Part shown: positions 797-40,400 of the stretch, in pieces
Layout: each line of letters begins with the position of its first letter
Position numbering within the stretch: the first letter of the stretch is position 1
Assembly (NCBI GenBank): GCA_964434115.1
Contig: CAYSSX010000003.1
Location: forward strand, 12,554 to 76,553
DNA: 64,000 nucleotides
Direction: 5' to 3'
Source: an uncultured bacterium
Lineage (GTDB): Bacteria; Omnitrophota; Omnitrophia; Omnitrophales; Aquincolibacteriaceae
The notes under the pieces: generated by a model
What the model was told of the DNA's origin: nothing
Databases searched by the model: none
What the model saw: the letters and a program-made list of their open reading frames with translations, nothing else
Made by a program: the position numbers and the translations under genes

Positions 797-3700
797 GTGC
801 TCGAAAATTTTGCGGGGAGGGCAAGGCCAATGTTTAAGACCTTTTTCGGGGGAAAAAAGACGAGAACGAAGGTCCTTGCCCTCTCCCTCATCACCACTCT
901 TTTAACTCTGGATATAAAGGAAGCTGGGGCTTTTGAGTCTTTTCTTCCGGCTCCCGGAGTTTCTTCTTTAAGCGATCAAAGTCTTCCTTCTGAAATTCTT
1001 CCGGAAATTGCTTTTCGTATTCCCGCGGCCTACGGACAAACCCTTCGCTCCTTTCAGGGAGACAAACCTTTTTTTGTCGTTCTTCTCCAGGATGCGCATG
1101 TTCATGAGGAGGCTCAGCTTCATTTGGCCGAGCTCCTTAAATTTCTTTCCGAAAATTACCGCGTCAAACTTGTCAGCGTGGAAGGTGCTGAGGGTGAGCT
1201 CGGTACGCACGCGGTGAATGCGTTTCCCGATAAAAGCGCGCTCCGTAAAGCTGCGGGGTATTTTCTGAAAAACGGGCGTCTGACAGGCGCGGAGTATGCG
1301 GCCATGATTTTGGACCCGAGCCTTCGTCTCTTCGGTGCCGAAGACCGGAAGCTCTATGAACAAAACCGGGATATTTATTTTAAAACCCAGGAATTCCGCG
1401 GGCGTGATCAATCGGTATTGAAAGAGACGAGTGACCTTCTTCAAAAACTCTCACGCTATGTGTATGCGCCGGACGTTCAGGAACTGCTCAGGAGTGAGGA
1501 GAAGGCTTTTCAGGACAGCGGACGCCTGGAAACTTATGTTTACATGCTTGCTCAGAAAGCCCGTCATCTGGAAATTTCCGAACAGGCTTACGGCTCTATT
1601 GCAAAATTCCTCCAGGCCGCTGAACTGGAAAAACGCATTCAGTTCGAAGAAGCCCGTGAGGAGCTGGCAGCATTAGAGCAGACCCTGAAAATCCGTTTCC
1701 CTGGACAGGTGTGGGATTTACCGTTGACGGAAACCAGCGATGCGGGCGGAGAATGGCGGCGCCGCGACTGGGCCAAGATCATCGCGAGAGCAGAAGAAGC
1801 GGGGCTGGGCGAACAATTTCCTCAGGCTTTGCGGATGGCGCAGTATTTTGAAGTTTCCCGCTCTTTGGGAATGAACCTGACCCAGGAAATACGCGCCTTG
1901 GCCGCGGCAGTTAAAGAAAAACTTCTGCTCACTGACACTGAGAAAAAATTCGACCAGTTTTTGCAGGCCATCCGGATTTATGAATCTTTCCTGAATCTTT
2001 CCCTGACGCAGGAAGACGCGGAATTCTTTTTTCCGCACCGGGCTCTTTTCTCTTCACAGAAAATACGCGAATTCGTGGAGCCTCTCTTGCGTGAACAGCA
2101 ATTTGAAAAAACACTTCCCGCGGACCTGGATCTGCTTGATAAGGATCTTCCCGAACTCGAAAAGTTTTATCAGGCCGCTTTGCTTCGTGACAAGGTGCTG
2201 GTGGAGCGCACGGTGAATAAAATGCAGAAAGAACGCGCTTTGTCTTCGGCGCTTGTGGCCGGAGGGTTTCATACCGCCGGCATTGAACGGCGTTTACGGG
2301 AAAAGGGAATTTCTTTTGTGACCGTGATGCCACGGATGACGAAAGTGGACGGCGAAGAAGAAAGTAAAAAACGCTATGAAGATGCGCTCAGCGAAAAGCC
2401 TTTGACCCTTGAAGATATTTTTAAAGTGACGGCAGAGAATTCAGCCCAGGCCAAAACTCAGGATACCCGGTTCCAGCTTGTGGCCTGGCTGATGAGTTCG
2501 GGGCCGGCAGTTCCGGGAGAAAAGGAATCCCGTATCCGGCCGCTTTTCTGGCTGGCGGCAGTGGAAAGTCTTCTGGGCGAGGAGCGCGTAAGCCCTGCCA
2601 TCCGTGAGCTTGAAAAACAGGCGGGAGAAGTTTCCGATGAAGGCTACCGCAGTGAGTTGAGAGACGTTCTGCGTGAGCTTGAAGGCGGAGTGCTGGAACA
2701 GCGTTCAGAAGACATGAAGGTGTATTGGCAGCGTTTGCCGGAAGGGGCTTTCCGGGCGGTGGTGAAGGCAAGCGGGAAAGACCGCCTGAAACTGGCGGCA
2801 GTTTTTGGGGTCCGCCGTTCCGTGCCTATCGTTGATCTGGGCGGGGATGAGATTCTTTCTGTTTTGAAAGTGGATGGTTATCTCGTGCCGGAAAAAGTCC
2901 GCCGGCAGTTTGATGCGAAGGATACAAGCGCCCGCCTCGCGGAAGAGCAGACGGCCGCGAGGGCTGAGCTCCGGACTCATGAACAGGACAGCTTTCGCAA
3001 AGATGTTGAAGAGAGGCAGCAGCAGTGGCTGGAAGAAACCCTTGAAAAAGTGAACCGGATTTTTGCCCAGGCCGAAGCCTATCTTGAACGCCAGGAAACG
3101 ATCGACTCTGCGAAGCTTTCACGTTTTCTCGAGCAAGGCGTGACCGCGGCCCTGCGCGAACTCGAAGACCTCAAGGATACGGAATTTCATCAGGTGGCGG
3201 ATGCCGCGCTTTCCGCCCGCTTCAAGGAGCGCTGGAATGACCTTTTGGCGCGCATTGGGGTTCGTGCTCCGGAAGCCGTCGAACAGTTGAAAAATCTCCT
3301 GCCTGCTTTACTGGATTCAGAAGCGGCCACAGCGGAGGCTGAAGATGTTTCCCTGACCGGACTTCTTTCGACGTACCGCGGTGACGGAACTTTTTTTCAG
3401 ACCCATTCACTGGAACAGATTCAGCAGGCGCTGGAAGACTTTCAAAAGCAAACGCCTTCAGCGGCCCGTGAAACCCGTGTTCCCGGGAGTGTCCGGTTTG
3501 CCGCGGGCCTCATTCTTTTTTATGTGATTCCGGGAACGGCTGCTTATTTTCTTCAAAACATGAGCCTTCCCGCGGTGATTCAGACGCTTCTTTTTATTTT
3601 CTCCATGCGCGTGGGGTATCTGGCCTTGACGCTGGCGCATGAGTGGACTCATTTGTCAGCCGCGGTACTCACCGGGGCGGGCAAGGACGCCTTGACGAGA

Positions 3701-6700
3701 ACCAATCTCACCGGGTCTCTGAAAATCCGGGAATGGGCAGCGGGAATTTTCGCGCCGCTGGTAAGGACCCCGAGGGTCATGATCCCGGCGCTTCGTTTTG
3801 GAAAGAATACTTCCCAGCATTCCCTGGTCCGTGACGCGGCCTGGATGATGAGCGGGCTGGTGGCCTTGGCCGGTATTGTTGCGCTGGTGGTCCTTACGCC
3901 GGGGCTGGAAAATATTTTATCGCGTTCTACGGTCGCGGGTGTTGCCGTCGGCTTTGCTTTGTCTTTCTTCGCGGGTTTTTGGTCCGATATTTTACGGCCT
4001 GCACCCAAAGGCGTTTATTGCTGCGGTAACTACGGGGCAGCGTATTTGGATACATCAGTTCAGCCGCCCGTTGGGGGACAGGATTTAACGTCCGTCCGCG
4101 CAAGAGTCGTGAAGACAAAACGCGGACAGCTTCCGGACGCTCTGCGCGGGGAGTATAAAGGCGAGGTGAGAAAGCGCTCTTTGCTGGAAAGACTGCGCCG
4201 TCCCTTTGGAGGCCTAGAAGCGCCCCGGACAGCCACATGGTTTGATGAACTTCTGCTTAAGATGTCGAAGGTCACGGTGATTCGCGGTGAGCAGGCCGGC
4301 GGTGAAATTGGTTACGCGGGTTCCGGTTCCGCAAGGATTGTCCGGTTACAGGGGCATTCACGTTATGGAACTTCCAGCGCGCCTGCGGTTAAAGAAACGC
4401 AGCCTCATACATGGCTTCCGGAACGCAAGACGCCGGTGTGGAGCATTGATAACGGCGTCATGCCGCGCGGTGCCCAGACAAGGCGCGTCAGTACCTTTGT
4501 CACGCACAATGGCGACTTTGATTTTTGGGAGTTATACGGCAAACAGGTTTCTTTTGATCAGGTCGCTGTTTGGCTGAAAAAAGTTTTGGGGGTTGGGCAC
4601 CCGGCCAAGGGCGATACGCCCAAACTGGCCGGCGTCATTGATTATGTTTTTGCCCAGGGGATGTGGGATGCGGCCCTGCGGTTTGCGTTTTATGAGAATG
4701 TGGCGGACACCCTCGATTTCCGCGGACTGCCACAGAGAACGTGGAAGCAGTGGGGCGCGCGTATGGACGAACTTCTTTCCCGGCTTATCCGCGAAGGCCG
4801 CGTGTCGCCTGTCCGTGAATGGTCGCACGTGCCGCAGGCGGAGCGCGATTTGATTGCGGCTGAAGCGCTCCGGATGTTCTCCGAAAGTGATGACTTCAAA
4901 AAGTCCGTTCCGGAGTCAAAGCGGGAAGGGTTTATTAAGGCGGCCGTGCAGGCCTTTCTTGAAAATGATCTCTACACAACAGCGCGTATCGTCAAAGCCC
5001 GTTCCGAAGGCTCTTTTGGCGTGATTATTACGTCCTCTCTGCAGCCGGAAAAAACGGTTTTGTTTGCGCACTCTCAGCCGCTTTTCATTGGCTATGACCC
5101 AAGCCTGAATTTAATGGCCTGGGCCTCGGAAGCCGCAGCGCTTAAAGTTGCGTTCACCGTGGATGGAACGAAACGCACGCTTCCTTACCGTTTTGACATG
5201 GACCAGGAAACAGGCGAGATTCTTGAGCTCCGGATGGATGATGGGCTTGGGAAAGAAGGGGAAACGGCCCAGTCCCTGCGTGTTTATTCGGAATTTTTGA
5301 AGCGGGAGCTGACACCGGAAGAAGTGTCCCGTTCCGGCCGTGTGATTGACACGCGTAATAATCCGCTGATTGACCCGCTTCCGGATTTTGATGAAAAGGA
5401 TCTGGTGGGTTCAGACATCAAGGAAATTCCCTACATTTTAAACAAGATCGAACAGACCTGGCAGGACCCCGAAAGCTTTAACCGGCAAAGCGCCTATGCG
5501 CTTCTTGAAATGCTGGTGGAAAAAGATATTGAGAAAAGAATCCGCGCCGGCGTGAGTTTAAAACTTTTAAACGGGCTGGCTGAGCAGATCCGCGAAACAG
5601 CCGCTCTGATCCGCGCGGATTTGATGAGCGGAAAAGTTTCAAATCAAAATCTTCCGGCTCTTGTGGAACGTGAAATCGCTGCCATTAACCAGGCCGCGCT
5701 TTTGAATCCGCCTCACGTGCCTGAATCCGGTGATTTTTTCCCGGAAGGGCAGTCCACTGTTGATGTTTTGTTGACGGGCTTTGAAGTCAGCCAGTGGTTT
5801 GGCGAACAATTTATTTCGGACCTCAGCCGTTTGTTTCCGGCCCTGACGGTGGAAGCGGTTTCATCGAATAAAGTTTTGAAGTCCTTGAAGGAGACCCGCT
5901 TCCGCGGCGGCGCCCGGGAATTCCGGATTCAGGAAAATAACCGTGTGGTGAAGGTGGATAGAAACACGGTGGTGCTTGCCGTGAGCCAGTCGGGACAGAC
6001 CTTTCCGACATTGAACGCGACCATTGCTTTGCGGGCTGTGCTGGGTGAACGGGTGTTTGCCATGACTGGCGGCCTGGATACCCTGATGGGGCGTGCCGTG
6101 GGACAGGTGTATGCCAAGGGTGCTCCCTTCAGCGGAAGAATTTTTGATAATTTGAGCGGACTCCGGCCGGCAGAACCGAGCACCGTGGCAACAGCTGCGG
6201 TCCATGCCACCTTTACCGAGATGCTGCTGTACCTCGGGACTGAAATGAAACGCATTTATGGAGAACGCAGGCCGCTTGGAATGGCGTTTGAATTAGAGGA
6301 CCTGGATATTTTGCGCAAGCTCCGGGATGAGCTGAACACGCAGGGACTGCCCGCGATTGCCGGTGCCTCTCCGCGCAGTTCCAAGGAAACAGTGGACTCT
6401 CCGGTGCGCCGCGACTTGATAAAACTTGGAAAGCGCTGGGCTCAGCATATCCTGGAACCTGCGATTGTGATTGGTTTAGCGACCTTGATTGTCGGTATTG
6501 CCAGCTATTACGGGCTTCCGTTTTTCCCGTCATCCTGGGGATGGCTGCAGGCGGTATCACCGGCAAGCCTCGTCGACTTTTTGATTTCTTTTGGAATTCC
6601 GGTACCCAGTTCTGTGGGAGCGGTGGGTAACTCCATCTTTTTTGTTCTCGCGAACGGAATTTACGCCATCATTCTTTTCCCCTGGTTTCTTTCTCTTGGT

Positions 6701-8833
6701 CTGCGTTTGATTCAGCGGCGTTTCCCTCTGCTGGCCCGCACGGGAAAAAGAACCCTTGTGATCGGGGACATTCCTTACGTGCATCAAACATTGGAAGCCT
6801 ACGTGAGTAAAATTCTTTCACTCAGTTATGGTTTTGCCTCGCTGGATGTTCATGCCGCCAACCCGCGTGATCATTATCTTCCGCGCTTTGGCCACCGTAT
6901 TGTCCGCGGACTTTTGTCTCTTTTGATGGAGCCGGATGCGCGCCTGCACAGTCATCAGGATGAAGTCGGCGCTGTGCGTATGACCAAGAGCCAGCAGGAA
7001 GGGGTCCGGAACTTTCAGGTCGGAGCCGAGGTTTTTACGCTGGGCCGGAAGATCGCGGGGAAGGATGCCCGTGAGAAGGAAGTGGCTCTTCCCGTGGCCA
7101 ATACCCCGATTCAGGTTTCAATTCCTAATTTCATCCGCAAGGTATCCACCGTGGTAACGCTGGATGACGCGGCCCGCCGGACACTTGCCAGCCAGCTGGA
7201 GAATTTCGCGGAACTGTTCCGCGGCAAGCCTTTGCATTTGGCCGCAAAGGAACTTGGAATTTCAATCGGCCTTTCGGGAAATGACCTCGTGAAATTCGAA
7301 GAAGAGTTCCTTCTTTATGGAGAGCGCCAGCACCTTCTGGAACGGATGTATGAGAAACGTCTCGGTTCGTTTGAACGGCTTGTCTCAGCGTACGTGATTT
7401 TTTGGGCGCTGGGAAGAATCGTTTCGCGCGCCTTTCGTTTCTTAAGGTTGACCTACGATATGGCGGCCAGCCAAAGCCGGACGCGTGTGGCCACAACGCG
7501 TTCCCCGGACGCGGCCGTTAATCTGAATCTTCTTTTTTCACAAATCGGAGAGCCGGAATCCGCCAGCCGTTTTAATTCGCCGGCCGTGCCCTTGCCTTTC
7601 CGGGTTGAGACCGCGGAGACGGTTCTTCAAAAAAGCCGGGAATCCGAAGTGACGGTGAGCGCTCCCGTGGCTCAAAGAAGACGTTCGAACACAGGCTTGA
7701 CCCGTGACGACCGCCGGAAGCTTTACCAGCGCGGCATTGAAATGGGGCTTGAAAAAATCGTGTTTGATCTTTTTATCGAGCTCAAAAACCTGGAAGACCA
7801 GGCCCTGGAGCCTGCGGTGGCCGCGCATCTGGACCGCAGTTACACAAGACTGCGTAAGGAAGCGGCTGAAGACCTTGAATGGTTTCAAGGCAAAATTGAC
7901 CCGACTCGTCTTGAAGAACTGAAGTATCTGATTCGCCAGGCGTTGACCAACAGCCGCGAAAGAGTGCAGAAACTTAGAAGCCTGCAGGCGCCTGCAGAAC
8001 GTGCTCCCCGTGTTCAGAACCAGCCCAGTGAAAGTTTTCTGAGACTGCGGCAGGCGCAGAGCCGTTTAAAAGATCAGGAAGAGGTCCGCCGCCAGATTGC
8101 GAAAACTTTTGTTCCTCTTAAGCAGGAACGGGCTGCTGAAAGTTCTTCCGCGCCCGGTTCTGCGCGGGCCGAGCTTCGCGAAGCGCCCCCGGAAGCCTTG
8201 AATCCAGCGGAGTTGTCGGAAGCGCTTCTTTCCAAGAGCAGTCTGGCATGGCTTTCGGAGGAACGACGTTTATTGCCCGGCCTTGCTAGGGCGGAAGCCG
8301 CGGGAATTGATCTTGAAAAGGCTTTTACTGAATTTGCCGTGACCCCGGGAGTTGTGCAGGCCTTAGGGCTTCCCGGTTCTTCCCGGGCTGGAACCCGCGG
8401 GTATTATCTTTTTGAATACCGCGCGCCTGAAGACCGTGAACTTCTTAAAAAGCTTCTGGTCCAAAAAGCGCCCGGCATTGTGGTCGCTGTTTTCGCGCCT
8501 GTTTCAGAGAGGGCTTCCCTGGTAAAGGAATTTACCGAGGCCGTGGCCCAGAACAATTTTGCTTTTCCAGAAACGGATCTTGTGACTTACCTGAACGAGA
8601 AATCTCGCGAGCTTAAAGTTCTGCGCAATGAAGTGATTCATTTCAGGCCGCTGGTCCATGTGAAGTTGAAGAAAAATTACGAGGAAGCGCTTCAGGTTGG
8701 AGCCTTGCCGCTTGCGGCCGGAGGGATTGTCATTCGTTCCGAAAGTCCTGTGCCGGGTGCCCGTGAACTCAGGGTCGCGGATGTTATTGCGGAAGTCTTG
8801 AAAGCCGCGCTCCTTGTGGAACGGTCGGCGTAA
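797..8833 (+). CDS. Giant multidomain protein 1 (2678 aa). It has an N-terminal hydrophobic anchor, the shared two-His N-module, a polytopic membrane segment containing HExxH, a GlmS-like class-II amidotransferase region, a SIS domain and a second membrane segment
   Basis: Uninterrupted ORF of 8037 nt. An alternative start is ATG 830, preceded by GGAGGG. The N-module motifs are VVLLQDAHVHEEAQ at 1088..1099 and GGFH at 2261..2272, both shared with the other two giants. LAHEWTHL (3638..3652) lies in a hydrophobic stretch. GHSRYGTSSAP..QPH and VTHNGDFDFW (4505..4513) resemble GlmS N-domain motifs. VVLAVSQSGQT (5984..6001) is the SIS signature. Confidence 0.8.
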   Translation: MLENFAGRARPMFKTFFGGKKTRTKVLALSLITTLLTLDIKEAGAFESFLPAPGVSSLSDQSLPSEILPEIAFRIPAAYGQTLRSFQGDKPFFVVLLQDAHVHEEAQLHLAELLKFLSENYRVKLVSVEGAEGELGTHAVNAFPDKSALRKAAGYFLKNGRLTGAEYAAMILDPSLRLFGAEDRKLYEQNRDIYFKTQEFRGRDQSVLKETSDLLQKLSRYVYAPDVQELLRSEEKAFQDSGRLETYVYMLAQKARHLEISEQAYGSIAKFLQAAELEKRIQFEEAREELAALEQTLKIRFPGQVWDLPLTETSDAGGEWRRRDWAKIIARAEEAGLGEQFPQALRMAQYFEVSRSLGMNLTQEIRALAAAVKEKLLLTDTEKKFDQFLQAIRIYESFLNLSLTQEDAEFFFPHRALFSSQKIREFVEPLLREQQFEKTLPADLDLLDKDLPELEKFYQAALLRDKVLVERTVNKMQKERALSSALVAGGFHTAGIERRLREKGISFVTVMPRMTKVDGEEESKKRYEDALSEKPLTLEDIFKVTAENSAQAKTQDTRFQLVAWLMSSGPAVPGEKESRIRPLFWLAAVESLLGEERVSPAIRELEKQAGEVSDEGYRSELRDVLRELEGGVLEQRSEDMKVYWQRLPEGAFRAVVKASGKDRLKLAAVFGVRRSVPIVDLGGDEILSVLKVDGYLVPEKVRRQFDAKDTSARLAEEQTAARAELRTHEQDSFRKDVEERQQQWLEETLEKVNRIFAQAEAYLERQETIDSAKLSRFLEQGVTAALRELEDLKDTEFHQVADAALSARFKERWNDLLARIGVRAPEAVEQLKNLLPALLDSEAATAEAEDVSLTGLLSTYRGDGTFFQTHSLEQIQQALEDFQKQTPSAARETRVPGSVRFAAGLILFYVIPGTAAYFLQNMSLPAVIQTLLFIFSMRVGYLALTLAHEWTHLSAAVLTGAGKDALTRTNLTGSLKIREWAAGIFAPLVRTPRVMIPALRFGKNTSQHSLVRDAAWMMSGLVALAGIVALVVLTPGLENILSRSTVAGVAVGFALSFFAGFWSDILRPAPKGVYCCGNYGAAYLDTSVQPPVGGQDLTSVRARVVKTKRGQLPDALRGEYKGEVRKRSLLERLRRPFGGLEAPRTATWFDELLLKMSKVTVIRGEQAGGEIGYAGSGSARIVRLQGHSRYGTSSAPAVKETQPHTWLPERKTPVWSIDNGVMPRGAQTRRVSTFVTHNGDFDFWELYGKQVSFDQVAVWLKKVLGVGHPAKGDTPKLAGVIDYVFAQGMWDAALRFAFYENVADTLDFRGLPQRTWKQWGARMDELLSRLIREGRVSPVREWSHVPQAERDLIAAEALRMFSESDDFKKSVPESKREGFIKAAVQAFLENDLYTTARIVKARSEGSFGVIITSSLQPEKTVLFAHSQPLFIGYDPSLNLMAWASEAAALKVAFTVDGTKRTLPYRFDMDQETGEILELRMDDGLGKEGETAQSLRVYSEFLKRELTPEEVSRSGRVIDTRNNPLIDPLPDFDEKDLVGSDIKEIPYILNKIEQTWQDPESFNRQSAYALLEMLVEKDIEKRIRAGVSLKLLNGLAEQIRETAALIRADLMSGKVSNQNLPALVEREIAAINQAALLNPPHVPESGDFFPEGQSTVDVLLTGFEVSQWFGEQFISDLSRLFPALTVEAVSSNKVLKSLKETRFRGGAREFRIQENNRVVKVDRNTVVLAVSQSGQTFPTLNATIALRAVLGERVFAMTGGLDTLMGRAVGQVYAKGAPFSGRIFDNLSGLRPAEPSTVATAAVHATFTEMLLYLGTEMKRIYGERRPLGMAFELEDLDILRKLRDELNTQGLPAIAGASPRSSKETVDSPVRRDLIKLGKRWAQHILEPAIVIGLATLIVGIASYYGLPFFPSSWGWLQAVSPASLVDFLISFGIPVPSSVGAVGNSIFFVLANGIYAIILFPWFLSLGLRLIQRRFPLLARTGKRTLVIGDIPYVHQTLEAYVSKILSLSYGFASLDVHAANPRDHYLPRFGHRIVRGLLSLLMEPDARLHSHQDEVGAVRMTKSQQEGVRNFQVGAEVFTLGRKIAGKDAREKEVALPVANTPIQVSIPNFIRKVSTVVTLDDAARRTLASQLENFAELFRGKPLHLAAKELGISIGLSGNDLVKFEEEFLLYGERQHLLERMYEKRLGSFERLVSAYVIFWALGRIVSRAFRFLRLTYDMAASQSRTRVATTRSPDAAVNLNLLFSQIGEPESASRFNSPAVPLPFRVETAETVLQKSRESEVTVSAPVAQRRRSNTGLTRDDRRKLYQRGIEMGLEKIVFDLFIELKNLEDQALEPAVAAHLDRSYTRLRKEAAEDLEWFQGKIDPTRLEELKYLIRQALTNSRERVQKLRSLQAPAERAPRVQNQPSESFLRLRQAQSRLKDQEEVRRQIAKTFVPLKQERAAESSSAPGSARAELREAPPEALNPAELSEALLSKSSLAWLSEERRLLPGLARAEAAGIDLEKAFTEFAVTPGVVQALGLPGSSRAGTRGYYLFEYRAPEDRELLKKLLVQKAPGIVVAVFAPVSERASLVKEFTEAVAQNNFAFPETDLVTYLNEKSRELKVLRNEVIHFRPLVHVKLKKNYEEALQVGALPLAAGGIVIRSESPVPGARELRVADVIAEVLKAALLVERSA
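1088..2272 (+). other. Shared N-terminal module of giant 1 (region between the two invariant His motifs)
   Basis: QDAHVHEEAQ ... VSVEGAEGEL ... GGFHTAGI align with QDAHANLEAQ / VALEGSAGELHPEY / GGFHSEG in giant 2 and QDAHANPEAQ / VAVEGARGDLHPEY / GGFHAQG in giant 3. Confidence 0.6.
3490..4000 (+). other. Polytopic membrane segment of giant 1 with an HExxH motif inside a predicted helix
   Basis: Several 18-25 residue hydrophobic runs occur here (GLILFYVIPGTAAYFL, TLLFIFSMRVGYLALTLAHEWTHLSAAVL, MSGLVALAGIVALVVL, VGFALSFFAGFW). HEWTH is at 3638..3652. Confidence 0.45.
4250..5000 (+). other. GlmS-like class-II glutamine amidotransferase-like region in giant 1, lacking the N-terminal catalytic Cys
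   Basis: VIRGEQAGGEIGYAGSG / GHSRYGTSSAPAVKETQPH / FVTHNGDFDFWELYG parallel GlmS RGYDSAGLA / GHTRWATHGEPSEVNAHPH / VVHNGIIENY. No Cys is present at the equivalent of the Ntn nucleophile position. Confidence 0.45.
5860..6290 (+). other. SIS (sugar isomerase) domain in giant 1
   Basis: NTVVLAVSQSGQTFPTLNATIALRAVLGERVFAMTGGLDTLMG matches the GlmS SIS1 signature SQSGET..T..AL. Confidence 0.55.
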
Positions 8834-8835
8834 GC

Positions 8836-9192
8836 CTAAAAGATGGACGCAGAGCTTTCGGAGGAGTTAAGGACGCCTTGAACAAAATTTCTCAGCCGGT
8901 TGCGGGAACTTTTTTGATCAAAGTGACAGATGTCATAAGTCAGACGTTTCCAATAGCGGTCATTTTCGACTTTTCCGAAGGCCACAAACCGCATCCATCC
9001 TGAAACAACAATCGCGGCAAGACAAACGCCGACAATCGATAGGACCAAATTCAGAGTCATCCAAAAGGCCGAGGAAAGACCGGCTGCCATTTCCCTTCCC
9101 TCGCCCACGCGGTTTTTGCTGCGGGATTTGTTCCGTTTCCGCTGTTCATTACGGTAATCGCGAAAGTCGGAAGATCGATATTCTCTGCTCAT
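8836..9192 (-). CDS. Small membrane protein, hypothetical (118 aa from ATG 9192)
   Basis: ATG at 9192 is preceded by GGAGAT. The product has a strongly basic N-terminal region followed by one hydrophobic helix (LNLVLSIVGVCLAAIVVSGW). It is convergent with the giant 1 stop and divergent from the HDAC gene. The longer ORF starting at 9297 would overlap the HDAC start. Confidence 0.35.
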   Translation of the reverse strand: MSREYRSSDFRDYRNEQRKRNKSRSKNRVGEGREMAAGLSSAFWMTLNLVLSIVGVCLAAIVVSGWMRFVAFGKVENDRYWKRLTYDICHFDQKSSRNRLRNFVQGVLNSSESSASIF

Positions 9193-9289
9193 AATCTCCG
9201 TTCTTGAAAAACCTGACTTGATTGATGACTTAAACATCGTCATCATAGTGAATACGGTTAAATCCTTTTTAATCTCCGGAAGAGTCCCC

Positions 9290-10261
9290 ATGAGCACAGC
9301 GCTTCTTTATGATGAAATTTACCTTTCCCATGACGCGGGGGCGCATCACCCTGAACGTCCGGAACGGCTTTCCGGGACGTACTCGCATCTTCAAAAGCAG
9401 AAATGGTTTAGGTCGCTTAAACTCCTGAAGCCCTCATCCGCACAAGAGCCCTGGATCCAGACGATCCATAGCGCGGAATACATAGCCCGGGTCTCCGAAG
9501 CCTGCCGGAGGGGCTATTCGAGCATCGATACTCCGGACGTAGGAATTTGTAAGCGGTCTTTTGAAATCGCGAAGCTCGCGGCGGGGGGTGCCTTGACTCT
9601 GGCAGACGCCCTGATGAAAGGGGAAATTGAAAACGGTTTCGCTCTTTTGCGTCCGCCGGGCCACCACGCGGAGCAGGATTTTGCCATGGGGTTTTGTCTT
9701 TTTAATAATGTTGCGATCCTTGCAAGGTACTTGCAGAAAAAGCACGGCCTTGAAAAAATCCTTATTCTTGATTGGGATGTGCACCACGGCAACGGTACCC
9801 AGCACGCGTTTGAAGAAGACCCGTCTGTTTTTTATGTCAGTCTTCATCAGTACCCCTTTTATCCGGGAACGGGCGGCGAGTATGAAAGCGGGCGCGGCCG
9901 TGGAGAAGGCGCAACGCTCAACTGTCCGATGGGGCAGGGGGCGCGGGATTCGGATTATGAACACGCCTTTTGTCAGAAAATTCTTCCGGCCATAGAATTT
10001 TTTAAACCGGACGCGGTGCTTGTTTCAGCGGGGTTTGATGCGCATGAGGCGGATCCCTTGGCCTCCATCAATCTCAGCACCGAATTTTTTGGGTGGATGA
10101 CGGAACGCGTGATGGAGATTGCCGCGAAGCACAGCGGCGGCCGCCTGATTTCACTGCTGGAAGGCGGCTATCACCTTGATTATCTTCCTCTTTGTACGGC
10201 GGAACACCTCCGCGTATTGATGGGCGGGAGCGCCGTAAAAATGTCCAAGCGCAGGCCTTGA
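9290..10261 (+). CDS. Histone deacetylase-family protein (acetoin utilisation AcuC / acetylpolyamine amidohydrolase-like)
   Basis: DWDVHHGNGTQ, GFCLFNNVAI and YVSLHQYPFYPGTGG are classic arginase/deacetylase-fold HDAC motifs. The start was chosen at MSTALLYDEIYLSH (ATG 9290). Confidence 0.85.
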   Translation: MSTALLYDEIYLSHDAGAHHPERPERLSGTYSHLQKQKWFRSLKLLKPSSAQEPWIQTIHSAEYIARVSEACRRGYSSIDTPDVGICKRSFEIAKLAAGGALTLADALMKGEIENGFALLRPPGHHAEQDFAMGFCLFNNVAILARYLQKKHGLEKILILDWDVHHGNGTQHAFEEDPSVFYVSLHQYPFYPGTGGEYESGRGRGEGATLNCPMGQGARDSDYEHAFCQKILPAIEFFKPDAVLVSAGFDAHEADPLASINLSTEFFGWMTERVMEIAAKHSGGRLISLLEGGYHLDYLPLCTAEHLRVLMGGSAVKMSKRRP

Positions 10262-10303
10262 AGCCATTCCTTGAATGCATTACAATGCGCGGACGGAGAA
10301 AAA

Positions 10304-10843
10304 ATGAAATTCACACCGCTTGAAATTCCAGGACTTATCTTGATTGAGCCGCGTCTTTTTCCGGACGCGCGCGGGTTTTTTTATGAATCCTACCGCACGG
10401 ACTTATTCGCCCAGAACGGAATCAAGGATACCTTTATTCAGGATAACCACAGCCGTTCTTCCAAAGGTGCTTTGCGCGGGCTTCACTTTCAGGTGGACCC
10501 GATGGCTCAGGGAAAACTGGTGCGTGTGATCCGGGGTTCGGTGTTTGATGTTGCCGTCGATCTCCGGCCGGGTTCAAAAACCTACGGCAAGCATGCCTCG
10601 CTCGTGCTGAGCGCGGAAAATAAAAAGATGCTTTATGTGCCTGCGGGATTTGCTCACGGGTTTTGCGTGCTGGAAGATGACACGGAATTTCTTTACAAGG
10701 TCACGAACTTTTATTCGGCGGCGCATGAACGGGGGATTCTCTGGAGTGATCCGGATCTCGGTATCGCGTGGCCTAATCTTGGAACCCTTATTCTCTCCGA
10801 CAAAGACAAGAAGTATCCCCGCCTGAAAGATTTTAAGAATTAA
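10304..10843 (+). CDS. rmlC: dTDP-4-dehydrorhamnose 3,5-epimerase
   Basis: MKFTPLEIPGLILIEPRLFPDARGFFYESY..HFQ..KLVRVIRGSVFDVAVDLR is the typical RmlC cupin. The start at ATG 10304 has GGAG 5 nt upstream. Confidence 0.85.
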   Translation: MKFTPLEIPGLILIEPRLFPDARGFFYESYRTDLFAQNGIKDTFIQDNHSRSSKGALRGLHFQVDPMAQGKLVRVIRGSVFDVAVDLRPGSKTYGKHASLVLSAENKKMLYVPAGFAHGFCVLEDDTEFLYKVTNFYSAAHERGILWSDPDLGIAWPNLGTLILSDKDKKYPRLKDFKN

Positions 10844-11859
10844 TCGTCGATTCCCGGACGGCTGAGGTTGAGAATGCGCTGGATGAGCTGGGGAAATTCA
10901 AGCCCTGCCTTTGCCGCGGACTGCGCGAAATCCTCTTCCGCGGCAAGCATCGGGTTCGGGTTGGCTTCGATGAAGACGAGATCTCCGGAAGAGGTCAAAC
11001 GCATATCAAGCCGCGCGTACCCTTTAATGGAAAGAAGCTGATAGATTTTTTTCGAGACCTTTTCGATTTTGGCGAGCGCGCCATTGACCAGGGTCCCCGC
11101 GAACTGGTTTTTAATGCCCCATTTCTTCCGGTAATTCTCATCCCATTTGGCTTTGTAAGTCGCGACCTTTGGCTCATCTTCGGGAACTTCGTTGAAACGG
11201 ATTTCCCTGACCGGAAAAATCTCAAGACGTTTGTTCCCGAGCAGGCTCACATAAAGTTCCCGGCCGTCGATGTATTCTTCCGCGATCACGTCCTGGTCCA
11301 TTGTTTCGTGTATGAACTGGACGCGTTCCTTGAGCTGTTCATCATTTTCCACGAAAGACGCCTGCGCGATGCCTAGGGAGGCCTCTTCTTTCAGAGGCTT
11401 TACAAAAATGGGGAAGTTGAGGTTCCTCGGGCGTTTGACGGCTTTTTTGCGGAGGAAGATCGCGAAGTCAGGAACCCGGATTCGGTGAAAACTCAGGATC
11501 TCTTTCGAGAGGCCCTTGTTTTTACACAGCGTCATGCCCGTGGGGCCGCAGCCGGTAAAAGGAATGCCGATGAGTTTTAACAAAGACGCGATATCGCGGT
11601 CATGCGCCGAGTCATGCTTGAAACGTTCGACGAGATTGAAGATAACGGTCGGCTGGAACTGCTTGATTTTCTCGAAGAGGATTTCCGTGTCGTCGAAAAG
11701 ACCGAGCGGGGCGGCGGTGTGGCCCAGCTGACCGAGAGCCTTCAGGATGTCGGCCTCGGTCTCCCAGTCTTTTTTTTTCAGGTCTTCAGTATAGTCCTGA
11801 TCAAGGGTGGTGGGACCTTCCGCGTTGAACAGGACAAGAACTTTTTCCGCTTTGCTCAT
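10840..11859 (-). CDS. ATP-grasp family ligase (D-Ala-D-Ala-ligase-like)
   Basis: The C-terminal half (EYIDGRELYVSLLGN..ARLDMRLTSSGDLVFIEANPNP) is a typical ATP-grasp fold. Its start overlaps the stop of the upstream HExxH gene in an ATGA arrangement. Confidence 0.7.
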   Translation of the reverse strand: MSKAEKVLVLFNAEGPTTLDQDYTEDLKKKDWETEADILKALGQLGHTAAPLGLFDDTEILFEKIKQFQPTVIFNLVERFKHDSAHDRDIASLLKLIGIPFTGCGPTGMTLCKNKGLSKEILSFHRIRVPDFAIFLRKKAVKRPRNLNFPIFVKPLKEEASLGIAQASFVENDEQLKERVQFIHETMDQDVIAEEYIDGRELYVSLLGNKRLEIFPVREIRFNEVPEDEPKVATYKAKWDENYRKKWGIKNQFAGTLVNGALAKIEKVSKKIYQLLSIKGYARLDMRLTSSGDLVFIEANPNPMLAAEEDFAQSAAKAGLEFPQLIQRILNLSRPGIDD

Positions 11860-12881
11860 TTGGAGCGCTTAAATTTCCCCGTAAAAAGGTGATTGCTGAT
11901 CAGCGTTGTGATGTAAGCCGCGATTTCAAAGTCTGTTTGATGATCGTCCTTCCGGGCATAAAGATTGAGCGCGTCGCAGCGATTAATGAGATTGCGGATG
12001 AGTTTGTCGACGGTGAATTTCTTTTCCCGGGTCCACCGCGCGACCGGCGCGAGGATGCGCTCATGATTATCGCGGAGATAGCGGGAGGCTTTGCGGCTGC
12101 CGCGTTCTTCGGGAACGGCGGTAAAAACGGTCTTTAAGTTGTTGTCGTGAAAATCAGGATAGTCCTCTTCGAAGAGTTTCTTTTTACGTTTGAAATAGGT
12201 CTTGAGACGGATCGACAGTCCCGCGAATTGTTTGAGATCCGCGGCGGGTGTCACGGCGGGAGGTTTTCCCGCGAGCGATTTCATCAGCGTGTCCACGTAC
12301 TCGAGTTTTTCCAGGGCTTTCCATCCGCGGAATTTTTTCCGCCAGTCAAGGCCCGGCGTGAGCCATACGGCAAAAGTTTCGGCGAAGTCTTCATCGGGAT
12401 GACTCTGGGCGTACCAGTTGTCGAGATGCGTCACGAAGGCGCGGCTGTACGGACGGGGGCGATAGGTGTCGCGGTACTCTTCGGCCGCGGAACCAAAAAG
12501 TTCGCGCCACTGTTTTTTCTTAAACAGGTTATACGCGTAGGAGTAAGCATGGCCGGTTTCATGGCGCATGAGTTTCATAAAATCTTTTTTTGTGCCGCCT
12601 TCCACTTCGAGGATGATTTTCTTTTCGAGGCGGCGCAGGCGCGGATGAGAGAGATAAAAAGGAACGCCGATCGCAGGGACGCCCACGGGACAAAACCATT
12701 CATCGGCCAGAAAACAGGGCGGCTCAAAAGCTAGGCCTTTCGCGCGCAATTCTTCATAGAGCATCTGGATCAAGGGTTCCAAAGCCGAACCGGAGATCGC
12801 GAGTTTCAGGTCCTGAATGCGTTTTTCGAAGAGGGCGTTTTCGGCAAGACGGCGCCAGTCGGGGTTTTCCATGGGCGGCAT
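11856..12881 (-). CDS. Putative zinc-dependent metallopeptidase (HExxH), hypothetical
   Basis: The translation contains MRHETGHAYSYAY (HExxH), and a conserved Glu further downstream (DEDFAETFAVW) could be a third zinc ligand. It is translationally coupled to the ATP-grasp gene. Confidence 0.55.
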   Translation of the reverse strand: MPPMENPDWRRLAENALFEKRIQDLKLAISGSALEPLIQMLYEELRAKGLAFEPPCFLADEWFCPVGVPAIGVPFYLSHPRLRRLEKKIILEVEGGTKKDFMKLMRHETGHAYSYAYNLFKKKQWRELFGSAAEEYRDTYRPRPYSRAFVTHLDNWYAQSHPDEDFAETFAVWLTPGLDWRKKFRGWKALEKLEYVDTLMKSLAGKPPAVTPAADLKQFAGLSIRLKTYFKRKKKLFEEDYPDFHDNNLKTVFTAVPEERGSRKASRYLRDNHERILAPVARWTREKKFTVDKLIRNLINRCDALNLYARKDDHQTDFEIAAYITTLISNHLFTGKFKRSK

Positions 12882-12895
12882 TATAACACGGGCTT

Positions 12896-13651
12896 CTAGC
12901 TTGACGGGGCGGCGAGCTTTTCGGAAAGAGCGGAAAAGAATGGGCCCAGTTCCGTATGGATGACGCGGTCGGCCAGGCTGTCGATCGGGGTGGGTTCCCG
13001 GTTAATGATAAAGACTTTGGCCCGGGCGCGCTTGGCATACCGGGGCAGGGAGGCTGCGGGCTCTACGACCAGGGAAGAACCGATGCAAAGAAGAAGGCCG
13101 GTTTGCTGGACCCAATCCACGGCCTGATGCAGGGTCCCTGGATCAAGCGCCTGCCCAAAGGAAATGGTGTTGGGTTTTAAAAGGCCCTCGCAGGCGGGAC
13201 AGAGGGGACACTCCCCGGTTTGTGTAAAATGTTCAAGAGCTGGTTCGATGGGGGCGGTCTTGCCGCATTCCAGACAAATCGTTTCCAGTGTGGTGCCGTG
13301 GATTTCAACGATGCTGCGGCTTCCGGCACGCGCGTGAAGGCCGTCGATGTTCTGGGTGATGATGCCTTTCAAGAGGCCGAGGTCTTCAAGCTGTTTTAAG
13401 GTAGTGTGAACAGGTCCGGGCCGGGCATCACGAACCGCGGGGTAAACTTCTTTTTTTCTCCGCCAGTATTCGATGCGGGAATCTTTACAAGTTAGGAATT
13501 CCTGAAAGGTGATGGGGTGATAGCGGTCCCACAAGCCGCCTTGTGAGCGGTAATCCGGAATTCCGGAATCCGTGGACACACCGGCTCCGGTGAGGGCCAC
13601 GGCCCCGGTTTTGAGCAATTCCTCAAGAAGGGCATTGATTTCATCGGTCAT
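12896..13651 (-). CDS. cobB: NAD-dependent protein deacylase, Sir2 family
   Basis: GAGVSTDSGIPDYR, GIITQNIDGLH and the C..C...C..C zinc ribbon (CLECG...CPLCPAC) are present. Confidence 0.85.
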   Translation of the reverse strand: MTDEINALLEELLKTGAVALTGAGVSTDSGIPDYRSQGGLWDRYHPITFQEFLTCKDSRIEYWRRKKEVYPAVRDARPGPVHTTLKQLEDLGLLKGIITQNIDGLHARAGSRSIVEIHGTTLETICLECGKTAPIEPALEHFTQTGECPLCPACEGLLKPNTISFGQALDPGTLHQAVDWVQQTGLLLCIGSSLVVEPAASLPRYAKRARAKVFIINREPTPIDSLADRVIHTELGPFFSALSEKLAAPSS

Positions 13652-37460: not shown

Positions 37461-40400
37461 ATGTCGCAAACTGACTGTATGGCTATTCTAGGCGCACGAA
37501 AGTGCGCGGCGGTAACATTGTTCTTTTTCGGCTTTCAGACAGTCGCTAGCTCTGCGCCTGCTGAGACGCTTTTACCTGCCGCCTCTCAAATTCAAATCCA
37601 AGAAAAAATCCCCAACTTTACTCCTCAGGAGATTGCCGGATACCTCCGGGAAATCCCTTCCGAACTTGGCAGTTTGCGTGAAAGCTTCATTCCTGGAAAT
37701 GCTGACGCTGAAAACGGGACGGCTGAGAAACTTCCGATGCCGGTTGTTTTTCATGTTCAGGACGCACATGCAAATCTTGAGGCGCAGGCGAGAATAAAAG
37801 AAATCCTGGAATGGGTTCGGAAAATGTCGAAAGACCATGGCGTTCAAGGGCCTGTTGTCGTGGCGCTGGAGGGAAGCGCCGGGGAACTTCATCCAGAGTA
37901 CCTTGATTTATTTCCGGAATATCCGGAGGCGAATGAAGCTTTTGTCCGGGATCTCAAAGACAAAGGCGAGATCACGGGAAGCGGTCTTTTCTTGTGGGAG
38001 CAGTATAAAGAAAAAAAATCGCACCCGGAAAACGACTCGGAAAATACCGGAAACATTGTGTTTTGGGGCGCTGAAAATCCGGAGCTTTACCGGCGTAATT
38101 TGAATCAGTTTCGAAGCCTTTTGATGAAACGCAAGGAGATTGATGCGTTTCTCCAGCCTTATCAAGCCCAGCTTGCCATAGCTCAATCGCGTATTCTTAA
38201 CCCGCAGCTTCGGGATTTTTTGAAAGACAGTGATAACCCCGAGACTCTTGCCCTGGCAGTTCTGAAGCACGCCAAGCCAACACTGGGTATTGATCTTTCC
38301 GAGCGGATCGAGCAGATCCGTTTCCCTAATCTTGCGCGTTTTGCCTACCTCCGTGAGCTTGAGCCGCTCCTCGACTCAGAACTGTCCCGCATGGATTGGC
38401 AGTCGCTGAAAAAGGGGTTTGAAAAGGATGGGATTCCCGAGGAGATGATCGCGAGGTTTGAACAGCTTTTTTCTCCTTCGGATGAAACGGGTGTCTCCTT
38501 CCGGAAAACAGTTGAAGAGATTTTACAGCGTTCCAATTTTTCCGCATCCCGCTTCCGTGATTACCCTCATTTGGCACAATGGGTTTCCTACAAATTACTC
38601 AGCCAGGAAATAGAGTCTTCGGATTTTGTCGCCGAGCTGGAACGGCTCAAGCAGGCGGTGATGACGAAATTGGCCGTGCGCAAGCAGGAAAAAGATTTTC
38701 TGAGTGTGCACAGTGACTTTTCGCTTTTTCAAAAGGTGCTTCATCTCGAAGTGACGCGCAGTGAGTATGCGGAAGCGTTGAAAACTGGAGGCCGTCTTCA
38801 GGCCGGTGAATTCAGCAAGCGCTTGGGCGAACTTCTTGAGCGGGATCGTGAGTTTGAGGAGCTCGGCAAAAATGCACGCAATAACGAGGCGGCTCTTCAA
38901 GAGGTCTTTAAGAAGGCTCTTGGATTCTACGAAGGTGCAGGAAGCCGCGATCTTGAAATTTTGGAGAATGCGCTTAGCTTTTATGACAAGCAAGCCAGGG
39001 CTCAGGTCAGTTTGCAGGAAGGCGCGCTGTCAAAGCCCGGAGTTCTGGTGCTTGTGACAGGAGGTTTTCATTCCGAGGGTGTGACACGTTACCTTAAGGA
39101 TCAAGGGATTGCTCACCTCGTGGTCGTTCCGAGGATTTCAAAAATCGAAACAGAAAATCTTTATTTCAAAGTCATGCGCCGTGAGAATTCCGACATGTCC
39201 GCTTATTTTGACAAAAACCCCCTGAACAAACAGGAGTCTCTTTTCCTTCGCGGACTCGTTGAAAAAGCGGCCCCGGAACTCACTCAAAAATACGGCGTTT
39301 CGAGCGCGGAAATCCCGCAGTTATTGGAGCAAGTCATTCACCGGCATCCGGTGCTTTCTGAAAAACTGGAAACCGCTGTGTTTCCCGGTGAAGGCAAACC
39401 CTTTGTCCGGATTAGTGTCACAGATCCCGCGAAGAAAGCCGTTCGAACCTCGGCTCAAAGTGTTGGGGAAGTGGACCTTCTTACTTCGGCAGGAAAGGGC
39501 CAGGCCTCTTATGCTTATTTGGCAGAGCAGGAATTCGACCCGAGCCTTGTTACAACGGTGACAGTGACGCCGAGCTTAAGCGGTCATTCCGCCGTTGAAA
39601 AAGCGCCGCTCAAAGGCGGTCTGTTGATGCAAAACCTGGGAAGCCTTGAAGTGACCGCGGGGCCGATTGATGCGGCTAATTTAAAAATTCTTAGATCCGC
39701 CGCCGATCAAATGCGTAATTTCAGCGGGATCATGAGCGCGACCCAGGCGGGGCCGAATTCTCTTATTCTGCCCCAGGCTGGAGTGCGGTCGGAGCTTCGA
39801 ACGATTCCGCAGGGATCCGAGAAGAAAGCGGTGGCAGAAATATCGCTCGATAAGATGACGGCAAATCAGGAGGAAATTAACCGGATCGTTGAAAACCATG
39901 ACCTGATTTATGTGAAGGCGGACATCCAGGATACTTTGACCTATGCGGAGTATATGAAAAAGTTTGAACCGTATATCACGGCGATTGGGAGTGCGCTAAA
40001 AACCCTTCGGCAAAAGGAAAAGCTGGGCGGGCGTGACAATTCGCATAAAGTCTTTATCATGAAAACCTGGTCGGAAGTGGGAAGCACTCAAAAGTTTTTT
40101 GATGACATCAAATGGTTCCGGGAACCGACACCGGAAGAAGGCGACAACGATTACTTTTTTGACGTTGTTTTTCAACCCGATTTTTCCTACCGGAGCGAGA
40201 GCGGAAAGGATGTCGAGGACCAAATCCTTTTTGGGGTTCGGAACCTTGGCGTTCCGAGCGGGGATCTCGAAACAGCCCGGCAGGAGAGGACGCTTAATCT
40301 TTTGCGGAAAAATTTTGATAACCCGGATTTTATGGGTGCTGCCAGCGCGGAACAAACGAAGAATGATTTGTTTCTTTACCTGGCGGCGAAGCTCGCGCAC

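Follow-up and report, generated by a model that had tools for sequence, protein, structure and literature searches.

The DNA analysed here is a stretch of 64,000 nucleotides from an uncultured bacterium of the Omnitrophota (GenBank assembly GCA_964434115.1, contig CAYSSX010000003.1, positions 12,554 to 76,553 of the forward strand), which is referred to as the window and numbered from its first letter. One of its open reading frames (ORFs), giant 1, spans positions 797..8833 of the + strand and encodes 2678 residues when read from a GTG codon, according to the ORF list and its translation. Met12 (nt 830) is the likelier start, because the alignment with the full-length orthologue P0052 (60% identity) begins at residue 12. 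An earlier note on this DNA had pointed to motifs in the middle of giant 1 equivalent to those of the glutaminase domain of GlmS, followed by the signature of a SIS domain about 490 residues later. All of them were found where that note had placed them: GEQAGGEIGYAGSG at aa 1164 (nt 4286), GHSRYGTSS at aa 1186, QPH at aa 1202, VTHNGDFDF at aa 1235 (nt 4499) and SQSGQT at aa 1730 (nt 5984), 495 residues past VTHNGDFDF. The interval given for this region, 4250-6290, does lie inside the GlmS-like unit but covers only a part of it, since the module extends from nt 4022 (Cys1076) to ~nt 7516 (aa 2240).

The module, all of it on the + strand, opens with a class II, N-terminal nucleophile (Ntn) glutaminase-like domain (aa 1076-1535; 4022..5401), as predicted from structural modelling, profile alignment and conservation. 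This domain contains a helical insertion of ~110 aa (aa 1290-1402; 4664..5002), which corresponds to helices 215-327 of the model and appears as a gap in the profile alignment. It is followed by a first SIS half (aa 1652-1855; 5750..6361), which includes S1665 (equivalent to S303 of GlmS) and the SQSGQT motif (aa 1730-1735, equivalent to S347-T352; nt 5984-6001). A hydrophobic hairpin (aa 1881-1973; 6437..6715), recognised by hydropathy, model helices and family consensus, separates the first SIS half from a second one (aa 1983-2085; 6743..7051; GKRTLVIGD..YVSKILSLSYG..ANPRDH..FGHR). The second half was assigned from the beta-alpha-beta pattern of the model, from double-SIS structural matches, from conservation and from GlmS numbering. 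The module closes with the tail motif SQSRTRVATT (aa 2225-2234; 7469..7498), which follows the family tail consensus and lies where the model is of low confidence. Directly upstream of the module, a membrane domain with ~4 hydrophobic segments (aa 896-1066; 3482..3994), delimited by hydropathy, carries the sequence HEWTH (aa 948-952; 3638-3652) and Asp1064 (3986-3988). The codon of Cys1076, the predicted N-terminal nucleophile, occupies positions 4022..4024.

Structural predictions place the resemblance of this region to GlmS far beyond chance. AlphaFold2 (AF2) models were built without templates, from alignments of family members only, and the model of aa 1076-1545 presented a predicted local distance difference test score (pLDDT) of 78 and a predicted template modelling (TM) score of 0.80, with pLDDT values above 90 in the helical insertion. 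In a Foldseek search of the Protein Data Bank (PDB), the 28 best matches of this model were all E. coli GlmS or human GFAT1 (best E 8e-6, probability 1.00). The next in the ranking were ASNS, PurF, EgtC and TsnB9, and all matches down to E 0.07 were class II glutamine amidotransferases; the TM-score to the isolated glutaminase domain of GlmS (1xff) was 0.52. The model of aa 1530-2240 (pLDDT 74.6) matched double-SIS phosphosugar isomerases and the isomerase domain of GlmS (E 4e-7 to 2e-6), with ~510-530 columns aligned and TM-scores to the target of ~0.5-0.57, indicating that both SIS halves are present, with inserted helices between them.

Profile comparisons pointed in the same direction. The alignment of 133 family sequences against three GlmS sequences with hhalign reached a probability of 96.1% (E 1.8e-9), pairing RGEQAGG with RGYDSAG, GHSRYGTSS with AHTRWATHG, and THNGDF with VHNGII; an alignment of 13 sequences against a single GlmS reached only 46%. 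GlmS also ranked first, with a non-significant E-value (0.3), in a PDB search with the 13-sequence profile, and a phmmer search of the PDB with the single sequence returned nothing relevant. Pfam GATase_2, GATase_6 and GATase_7 gave no match at E<=1 for giant 1 or for the relatives tested. The NCBIfam models TIGR01135 and NF001484 scored 16.6 and 19.6 bits on giant 1, against cut-offs of 418 and 381, in the SQSGQT region only; this weak match (aa 1706-1767) coincides with the first SIS half, which is also supported by local hhalign alignment, by AF2 and Foldseek, and by conservation. In structure-based alignments, identity to GlmS is ~10-13%. The GlmS-type class II amidotransferase fold followed by SIS that the earlier note had proposed is thus borne out by both models and by the profile alignment, and the resemblance reaches further than it had suggested, with two SIS halves and a GlmS-like C-terminal tail making up the whole GlmS architecture.

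The module belongs to a large family. Exhaustive HMMER searches with a profile of its glutaminase part put the family at no fewer than 1366 clusters (50% identity) with E<=1e-3, of which 435 reach E<=1e-30. Given how poorly canonical GlmS scores with this profile (E=35-8000 at library size), these clusters do not represent GlmS.

In the glutaminase domain of GlmS, Cys1 is the sole catalytic residue (PMC9272926). Giant 1 contains only two cysteines, adjacent to each other at aa 1075-1076 in the context GVY-C-C-G-N-Y-G-A-A-Y-L-D. The earlier note had stated that no Cys is present at the spot equivalent to Cys1, but in both global and local hhalign alignments Cys1076-Gly1077 is paired with Cys1-Gly2 of GlmS. 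In the AF2 model, the first beta strand covers residues 2-10, as in GlmS, and Cys1076 stands at its start. The C-G-N-[FYW]-G motif is kept across the first 16 relatives with the exception of one that is N-terminally truncated, in the larger relative set Cys-Gly is retained even where the third residue differs, and every one of the 77 relatives with an N-terminal extension has the Cys. Since the relative L005 (62% identity) presents Phe-Cys in place of Cys-Cys, the conserved residue is Cys1076, not Cys1075. A conserved Cys aligned with Cys1 of GlmS was the very observation that the note had named as speaking against its reading.

This residue had been overlooked because of its unusual spacing. 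In giant 1, Cys1076 stands 88 residues upstream of GEQAGG, compared to ~35-40 in other relatives, as a result of a lineage-specific swap of two adjacent segments (4052..4351, + strand) that became apparent when the sequences were placed side by side. In giant 1, L004, L005 and P0052 the 'VRARVVKTKRGQLP...' hairpin-helix precedes the 'alpha1-RGEQAGG-beta' segment, whereas in P0070, in all other relatives and in GlmS it comes after it. The swap is retained in L004, L005 and P0052 at 60-93% identity and is therefore not an assembly artefact.

Not all family members carry the Cys internally. A Met-Cys-Gly-Asn start was identified in 18 of 163 relatives, and in the two of these that were checked on DNA it is preceded by a Shine-Dalgarno sequence, uses an ATG or GTG start and has an in-frame stop 18-30 nt upstream; no split gene or ORF for the membrane domain was detected upstream of either. 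These relatives suggest that the family in its basic state has the classical arrangement, in which Cys becomes residue 1 once Met has been removed. Among the ~120 family members with a visible N-terminus, about 100 have the Cys in an internal position. An internal translation start at Cys1076 was considered for giant 1 and rejected, the preceding codon being TGC.

The residue register provided by hhalign allowed the glutaminase site to be followed in giant 1, with R1163 corresponding to R26 of GlmS, H1187/R1189/T1192 to H71/R73/T76, N1238-G1239 to N98-G99 and D1273 to D123. N1238, G1239 and D1273 are conserved in 133/133 sequences, and the Arg and Thr equivalents in 132/133. By analogy of position, Asn1238-Gly1239 would form the oxyanion hole, and Arg1163, Arg1189, Thr1192 and Asp1273 are the predicted glutamine-binding residues. 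The glutaminase site of the module is hence predicted to be intact.

The acceptor site presents a different picture. S1665 and S1730/S1732/T1735 (equivalent to S303 and S347/S349/T352 of GlmS) are kept in >=93% of 55 relatives, and so are K2005, D2025-H2026 and H2033. The catalytic triad of the GlmS isomerase domain consists of Glu488, His504 and Lys603 (PMC9272926). H2026, which the secondary-structure register locates at the N-terminus of the helix that follows strand 2 of the second SIS half, is probably the equivalent of His504. In the helix that bears Glu488 and Lys485, however, GlmS reads ALKLKEISY and giant 1 YVSKILSLSY, and no acidic residue is conserved. The family tail consensus, [RK][ST][QH]Sxx[RK][IV]ATTA[SA]PVS, resembles the GlmS tail LAK603SVTVE, with its Lys603-like position occupied by Arg in 44/54 sequences, including R2230 of giant 1, and by Lys in the other 10/54. 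Tentatively, two of the three isomerase catalytic residues would thus be lost and phosphate binding retained. Since Glu488 is probably without equivalent and Lys603 is mostly replaced by Arg, the acceptor reaction is expected to differ from the synthesis of glucosamine 6-phosphate, and the acceptor chemistry of the module is probably unlike that of GlmS.

Hydropathy analysis identified ~4 hydrophobic segments at aa 901-1066 and the further hydrophobic hairpin at aa 1881-1973. The hairpin is found even in relatives that start with Met-Cys, which suggests that the module is intrinsically membrane-anchored. In giant 1, Cys1076 lies only 12 residues past Asp1064 of the upstream membrane domain. 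Catalysis by Ntn enzymes relies on the nucleophile having its alpha-amino group free, and an internal Cys must therefore be unmasked in order to act. Precedents for such unmasking are provided by B. subtilis PurF and glutamate synthase, which are made with propeptides whose removal exposes Cys1. The earlier claim that a Cys1 is impossible at an internal position was in consequence too strong, given that the Ntn hydrolases, to which class II amidotransferases are assigned, process themselves (PMC9140057). The cut needed in giant 1 would fall at Cys1075/Cys1076. The three R(S/A)ELR sites of the protein start at aa 618, 722 and 2457, and none of them, not even the nearest (722 and 2457), would expose the nucleophile, in agreement with what the note had observed. 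Of the two readings entertained there, the one in which the domain becomes active only after proteolytic release is the one that the evidence favours, on the strength of enzymology and of the Met-Cys relatives.

With moderate confidence, we propose that aa 1076-2240 of giant 1 constitute a complete, highly divergent GlmS-type module that is made as a zymogen, activated by a cut at Cys1075/Cys1076 and endowed with an altered acceptor reaction. Giant 1 would be synthesized in an inactive form, because Cys1076, which must have its alpha-amino group free to serve as nucleophile, lies inside the chain, just after the membrane domain. Cleavage of the Cys1075/Cys1076 bond would then yield an active glutaminase. 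The likeliest route for this cleavage would be self-processing through an N-to-S acyl shift, as is typical of Ntn hydrolases, since the Cys is kept even in the many relatives whose upstream domain is missing the Glu or the entire HxxxH. With lower confidence, the ammonia released would be transferred to a sugar-like, phosphorylated acceptor bound by the SIS phosphate loop (S1665, S1730, S1732, T1735) and His2026, in a reaction other than the ketose-aldose isomerisation of GlmS. The hairpin between the SIS halves would anchor the module in the membrane, and the giant form would add an N-terminal head and a C-terminal extension, with R(S/A)ELR motifs placed between these and the module.

Several observations weigh against this proposal. 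Pfam yields no match on the whole of giant 1, and the curated models of Pfam and NCBIfam recognise no such domain. The cut at Cys1075/Cys1076 is one that we infer from enzymology and from the Met-Cys relatives. The AF2 model is unsure at the segment swap, which lies beside the nucleophile, with pLDDT <50 across model residues 61-102, a stretch that contains RGEQAGG. This particular copy could be structurally compromised, although three other sequences retain the swap, and its lineage could differ in function from other family members. There is also some circularity in the counts for C-G and R-G-x-Q, these motifs having been used to pick the sequences, which does not apply to the other counts. 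Lastly, profile alignment failed for the second SIS half and the tail, where residue equivalences were established by inspection, and the statements on Glu488 and Lys603 are tentative for this reason.

The distribution and genomic context of the family bear on a different interpretation. Among 185,579 species genomes (one per species), 106 loci encode a relative. Most of them are in the Cyanobacteria (Nostoc, Leptolyngbya, Pleurocapsa, Chroococcidiopsis, Synechococcus/Cyanobium and others), and the remainder include Chromatiaceae (Thiocapsa, Thiocystis), Omnitrophota, Elusimicrobia and Planctomycetales. An alignment-based, word-indexed homologue search contributed only four new proteins, all eukaryotic, and a scan of viral contigs for GlmS only two useful sequences. 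In Cyanobacteria, the gene for a form of ~1200 aa follows phosphorelay genes directly, at 0-61 nt and on the same strand, in at least nine loci; these phosphorelay genes encode a hybrid kinase with a Tll0287 sensor, a protein combining response regulator, HisKA and ParA ATPase domains, and a triple receiver-PAS protein. The family gene was seen as the last of a same-strand cluster with three large phosphorelay genes in L008, L010, L011, L014, L018, L026 and L028 (~2000-9900). Elsewhere, as in L051, L055, L058 and L065, the upstream gene codes either for a fusion of a Ser/Thr kinase with a periplasmic binding domain or for a periplasmic binding protein on its own, at a distance of 41-119 nt in four loci, and nine loci have a divergent GGDEF gene upstream. 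Proteins of 2250 to >5000 aa from Omnitrophota, Elusimicrobia and Planctomycetes carry the module at ~aa 900-1350 and have a ~550-aa N-terminal head in common with giant 1. The window is 93% identical to L004, from a metagenome-assembled genome (MAG) labelled 'uncultured bacterium', and 62% identical, over the module compared, to L005, from a Candidatus Omnitrophota MAG, whose ORF is similarly long.

Some further members of the family may be recorded here. An Omnitrophota contig (nzgw299; L068 1-15762) consists of a single open frame of >=5254 aa that runs off both ends, in which tblastn detected a relative of the module at locus positions 2905-5763 (29% identity over query residues 118-1026), although the regular expression used did not pick up a Cys-Gly start motif in it. 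At least P0013 and P0014 derive from eukaryotic transcriptome assemblies (EukProt). The combination of Y-C-C-G-N-W-G with an HExxH membrane domain, in proteins of 1500-1900 aa, recurs in P0013-P0016, P0024, P0032, P0036 and others.

The association with phosphorelay, Ser/Thr kinase, periplasmic-binding and GGDEF genes in Cyanobacteria is the main support for the view that extended members are never cleaved, and that they operate instead as ligand sensors or pseudoenzymes that bind glutamine and/or a sugar phosphate and are coupled to signalling. The internal position of the Cys in most members and the probable absence of Glu488 and Lys603 equivalents are in line with this view. An Ntn domain that is never cleaved, however, would have no reason to maintain an invariant Cys, an Asn-Gly oxyanion hole and an Arg/Asp clamp, and 18 members start with Met-Cys. 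Sensing and catalysis are, moreover, not mutually exclusive, and we regard permanent lack of cleavage as unlikely, if slightly less so than the other alternatives.

An alternative also arises for the agent of the cut. In the 77 relatives with an N-terminal extension, the best-conserved positions of the upstream membrane domain are those equivalent to H948 (68/77), H952 (72/77) and D1064 (71/77), and the distance from the Asp to the Cys is ~12-20 residues. The domain matched Pfam Peptidase_M50 in the relative P0041 (E=0.019), and the family profile matched the Aquifex site-2 protease aq_1964 in the PDB (E=0.23), both below threshold; Pfam searches with the membrane domain itself and with four giant relatives gave no significant match. 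The assignment of the membrane domain to M50/site-2 proteases is accordingly to be read as a lead rather than as a result. If it held, the upstream domain would be a zinc metalloprotease that cuts Cys1075/Cys1076 in cis, in a form of regulated intramembrane-type proteolysis. Such an arrangement would fit the full HExxH (HEWTH) and Asp1064 that giant 1 presents in hydrophobic segments, the prominence of the His/His/Asp triad, the nearly constant position of the Cys past the Asp, and the two independent weak matches. HExxH is present in 47/77 relatives, but 21/77, mostly cyanobacterial, present HGxGH, without the Glu, and 9/77 have no HxxxH, and the Cys is kept in all of them. In addition, the Met-Cys relatives have neither such a domain nor a gene for it nearby, and the M50 match falls under every significance threshold. 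Cleavage in cis by an M50-like domain would be possible in members with an intact HExxH, such as giant 1; as the explanation for the unmasking of the nucleophile, we consider it doubtful.

An extension of this idea, to which we assign a small chance, would combine the preceding elements into a zymogen whose amidotransferase N-terminus arises by membrane-embedded proteolysis, in cis by the site-2 protease-like domain where HExxH is intact, so that the cut acts as an irreversible membrane switch for an activity in which glutamine hydrolysis would be coupled to a phosphosugar-like ligand. In Cyanobacteria this switch would be wired to phosphorelays and Ser/Thr kinases, and in giants of the Omnitrophota type the module would be polyprotein cargo cut at R(S/A)ELR, possibly by a Tiki-like head.

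It is improbable, on the other hand, that the module is a bona fide glucosamine-6-phosphate synthase (EC 2.6.1.16) that has simply been tethered to the membrane as part of a giant protein. Such an enzyme would be expected to show the complete domain order of GlmS with its tail, the conserved SQSGQT phosphate loop and GlmS as best match among all amidotransferases, and the window also encodes sugar-nucleotide enzymes, among them a UDP-glucose dehydrogenase domain in giant 2, RfbC and a DegT aminotransferase. The apparent lack of an acidic residue at the Glu488 position, the Arg found at the Lys603-like position in giant 1 and most relatives, the low identity to GlmS and the poor scores of canonical GlmS with the family profile all argue against it. 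A canonical glmS is present in 174/176 complete Omnitrophota genomes (10.64898/2026.06.07.730766), and a second, divergent enzyme for the same reaction would not be needed. No canonical GlmS was detected by tblastn in the window or in any of the flanking sequences searched.

The idea that the nucleophile was lost, leaving the ammonia-dependent enzyme or mere sugar-phosphate-binding module contemplated in the note, can hardly be sustained: no Cys lies within the ~25 residues upstream of RG(E)QAGG, where GlmS has one, and curated models detect no GATase domain, but Cys1076 aligns with Cys1 and is invariant in the family, the spacing is due to the segment swap, and such a reading is unnecessary because all residues of the glutamine site are kept.

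The proposed zymogen can be compared with several known systems. In GlmS and GFAT (E. coli GlmS 2j6h/1jxa/1xff/1moq; human GFAT1 6svp), the glutaminase domain, the two SIS halves and the C-terminal tail follow in the same order, and the module keeps equivalents of Cys1, Arg26, Arg73, Thr76, Asn98-Gly99, Asp123, Ser303, Ser347/Ser349/Thr352 and, probably, His504. It differs from them in the internal Cys of most members, the ~110-aa helical insertion, a long helical linker, the membrane hairpin between the SIS halves, the probable absence of a Glu488 equivalent, the frequent replacement of Lys603 by Arg and, in the lineage of giant 1, the segment swap. The module is predicted to descend from, and to work like, an amidotransferase of the GlmS/GFAT type. 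We nonetheless refer to it as a class II amidotransferase variant and not as GlmS, because it fails curated thresholds, has probably lost two isomerase residues, is membrane-embedded and has a masked nucleophile in most members.

B. subtilis PurF and the large subunit of glutamate synthase (MEROPS C44) likewise have their Cys elsewhere than at position 2, unmasked by removal of the preceding peptide. Known class II propeptides are soluble and span 11 to ~40 residues, whereas the equivalent 'propeptide' in this family would be a polytopic membrane domain of 120-250 aa, and of >1000 aa in the giants; the acceptor domains of PurF and glutamate synthase are, furthermore, unrelated to SIS. The double-SIS isomerases and deglycases (3g68, 3knz, 2aml, FrlB 8glr, AgaS 3c3j), which are the top Foldseek matches of aa 1530-2240 (TM ~0.55), have the phosphate-binding Ser/Thr loop in common with the module, but neither a glutaminase domain nor a membrane hairpin. 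Site-2 proteases of the M50 family (RseP, Aquifex aq_1964 9j82) likewise present HExxH in a hydrophobic segment and an Asp in a later one, whereas here the matches are non-significant, many members lack the catalytic Glu and there is no PDZ domain. We know of no M50 protease fused directly upstream of an Ntn nucleophile, and the searchable literature yielded no description of a membrane GlmS-like family or of a fusion between a site-2 protease and an amidotransferase.

Ntn amidotransferases are soluble enzymes whose nucleophile is exposed by removal of Met or by loss of a short propeptide. The family described here is large and unannotated, with no curated Pfam or NCBIfam model above threshold on any member tested and with the six members that were looked up listed as 'hypothetical protein' or without a name. 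Its members have a glutaminase site that is predicted to be intact, are anchored in the membrane, differ from GlmS, probably, in the acceptor site and in most cases bear a polytopic domain with a putative metal site, joined directly to the nucleophile. If the proposed processing is true, it would represent a novel form of control of an amidotransferase, and it would provide a biochemical handle on genes of unknown function in well-studied cyanobacterial genera. As for giant proteins, the case shows that at least one 'giant' is a chain of recognisable enzyme modules, probably in need of being cut apart to work, and the notion of a polyprotein, together with the R(S/A)ELR motif, thereby becomes open to direct proteomic testing.

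Outside the module, the N-terminal head of giant 1 (~aa 10-560; 824..2476, + strand) was delimited by blastp to P0020, P0034, P0035, P0038, P0046 and others, and to the other two giants of the window. A head domain of ~550 aa is common to all three (797-2746, 37461-39410 and 44528-46477), with 32% identity over 586 aa between giants 2 and 3 (E 4e-67) and a more distant match between giants 1 and 2 (E 2e-17), and it bears the motifs IQDAHxxEEAQ, LEGASGE and VTGGFHTxGI. Its one match outside these proteins is a weak one in Pfam, to Cofac_haem_bdg of the Tiki superfamily (ChaN), which at E=0.015 and 15.8 bits falls short of the cut-off of 27.7. Set beside the paired GxxH motifs and conserved Glu of the Tiki/ChaN/TraB superfamily, the head offers QDAH, EGASGE and GGFH; a profile search of the PDB with the head domain returned nothing.

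The R[SA]ELR motif occurs 11 times in the three giants, compared to a rough expectation, from typical residue frequencies, of well under 0.1. In giant 1 it is represented by RSELR at aa 618-622 (2648..2662, + strand) and RAELR at aa 722-726 (2960..2974, + strand), both at inter-domain positions equivalent to those of the motif in relatives, and by RAELR at aa 2457-2461 (8165..8179, + strand), downstream of the GlmS-like module. The motif appears at aa 776 and 1994 of giant 2 and at aa 720, 1378, 1754, 1939, 2758 and 3006 of giant 3. In relatives from other genomes, namely P0020, P0034, P0035, P0038, P0046 and P0052, RSELR or RSEMR occupies such positions behind the head, ahead of the membrane domain and past the end of the GlmS-like module. 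R[SA]ELR looks like a processing-site motif of polyprotein-like giants, as judged from these positions.

The neighbours of giant 1 in the window (an M48 peptidase fragment, an HDAC-like protein, RfbC, a Ddl-like ATP-grasp protein, Peptidase_Mx and SIR2) follow no clear operon logic. Those downstream, at 9218-13651, encode an HDAC-family deacetylase, the dTDP-4-dehydrorhamnose epimerase RfbC, a Ddl-like ATP-grasp ligase, a Peptidase_Mx protein and a SIR2 deacetylase, with no evident link to giant 1. All three giants are nearly free of cysteine, with two residues in the 2678 aa of giant 1 (797-8833), four in the 2303 aa of giant 2 (37461-44372) and one in the 4323 aa of giant 3 (44528-57499). 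Giant 2 carries a complete UDP-glucose/GDP-mannose dehydrogenase at aa 1365-1768 (window 41553-42764), with all three Pfam domains, as a second enzyme of sugar metabolism embedded in a giant protein.

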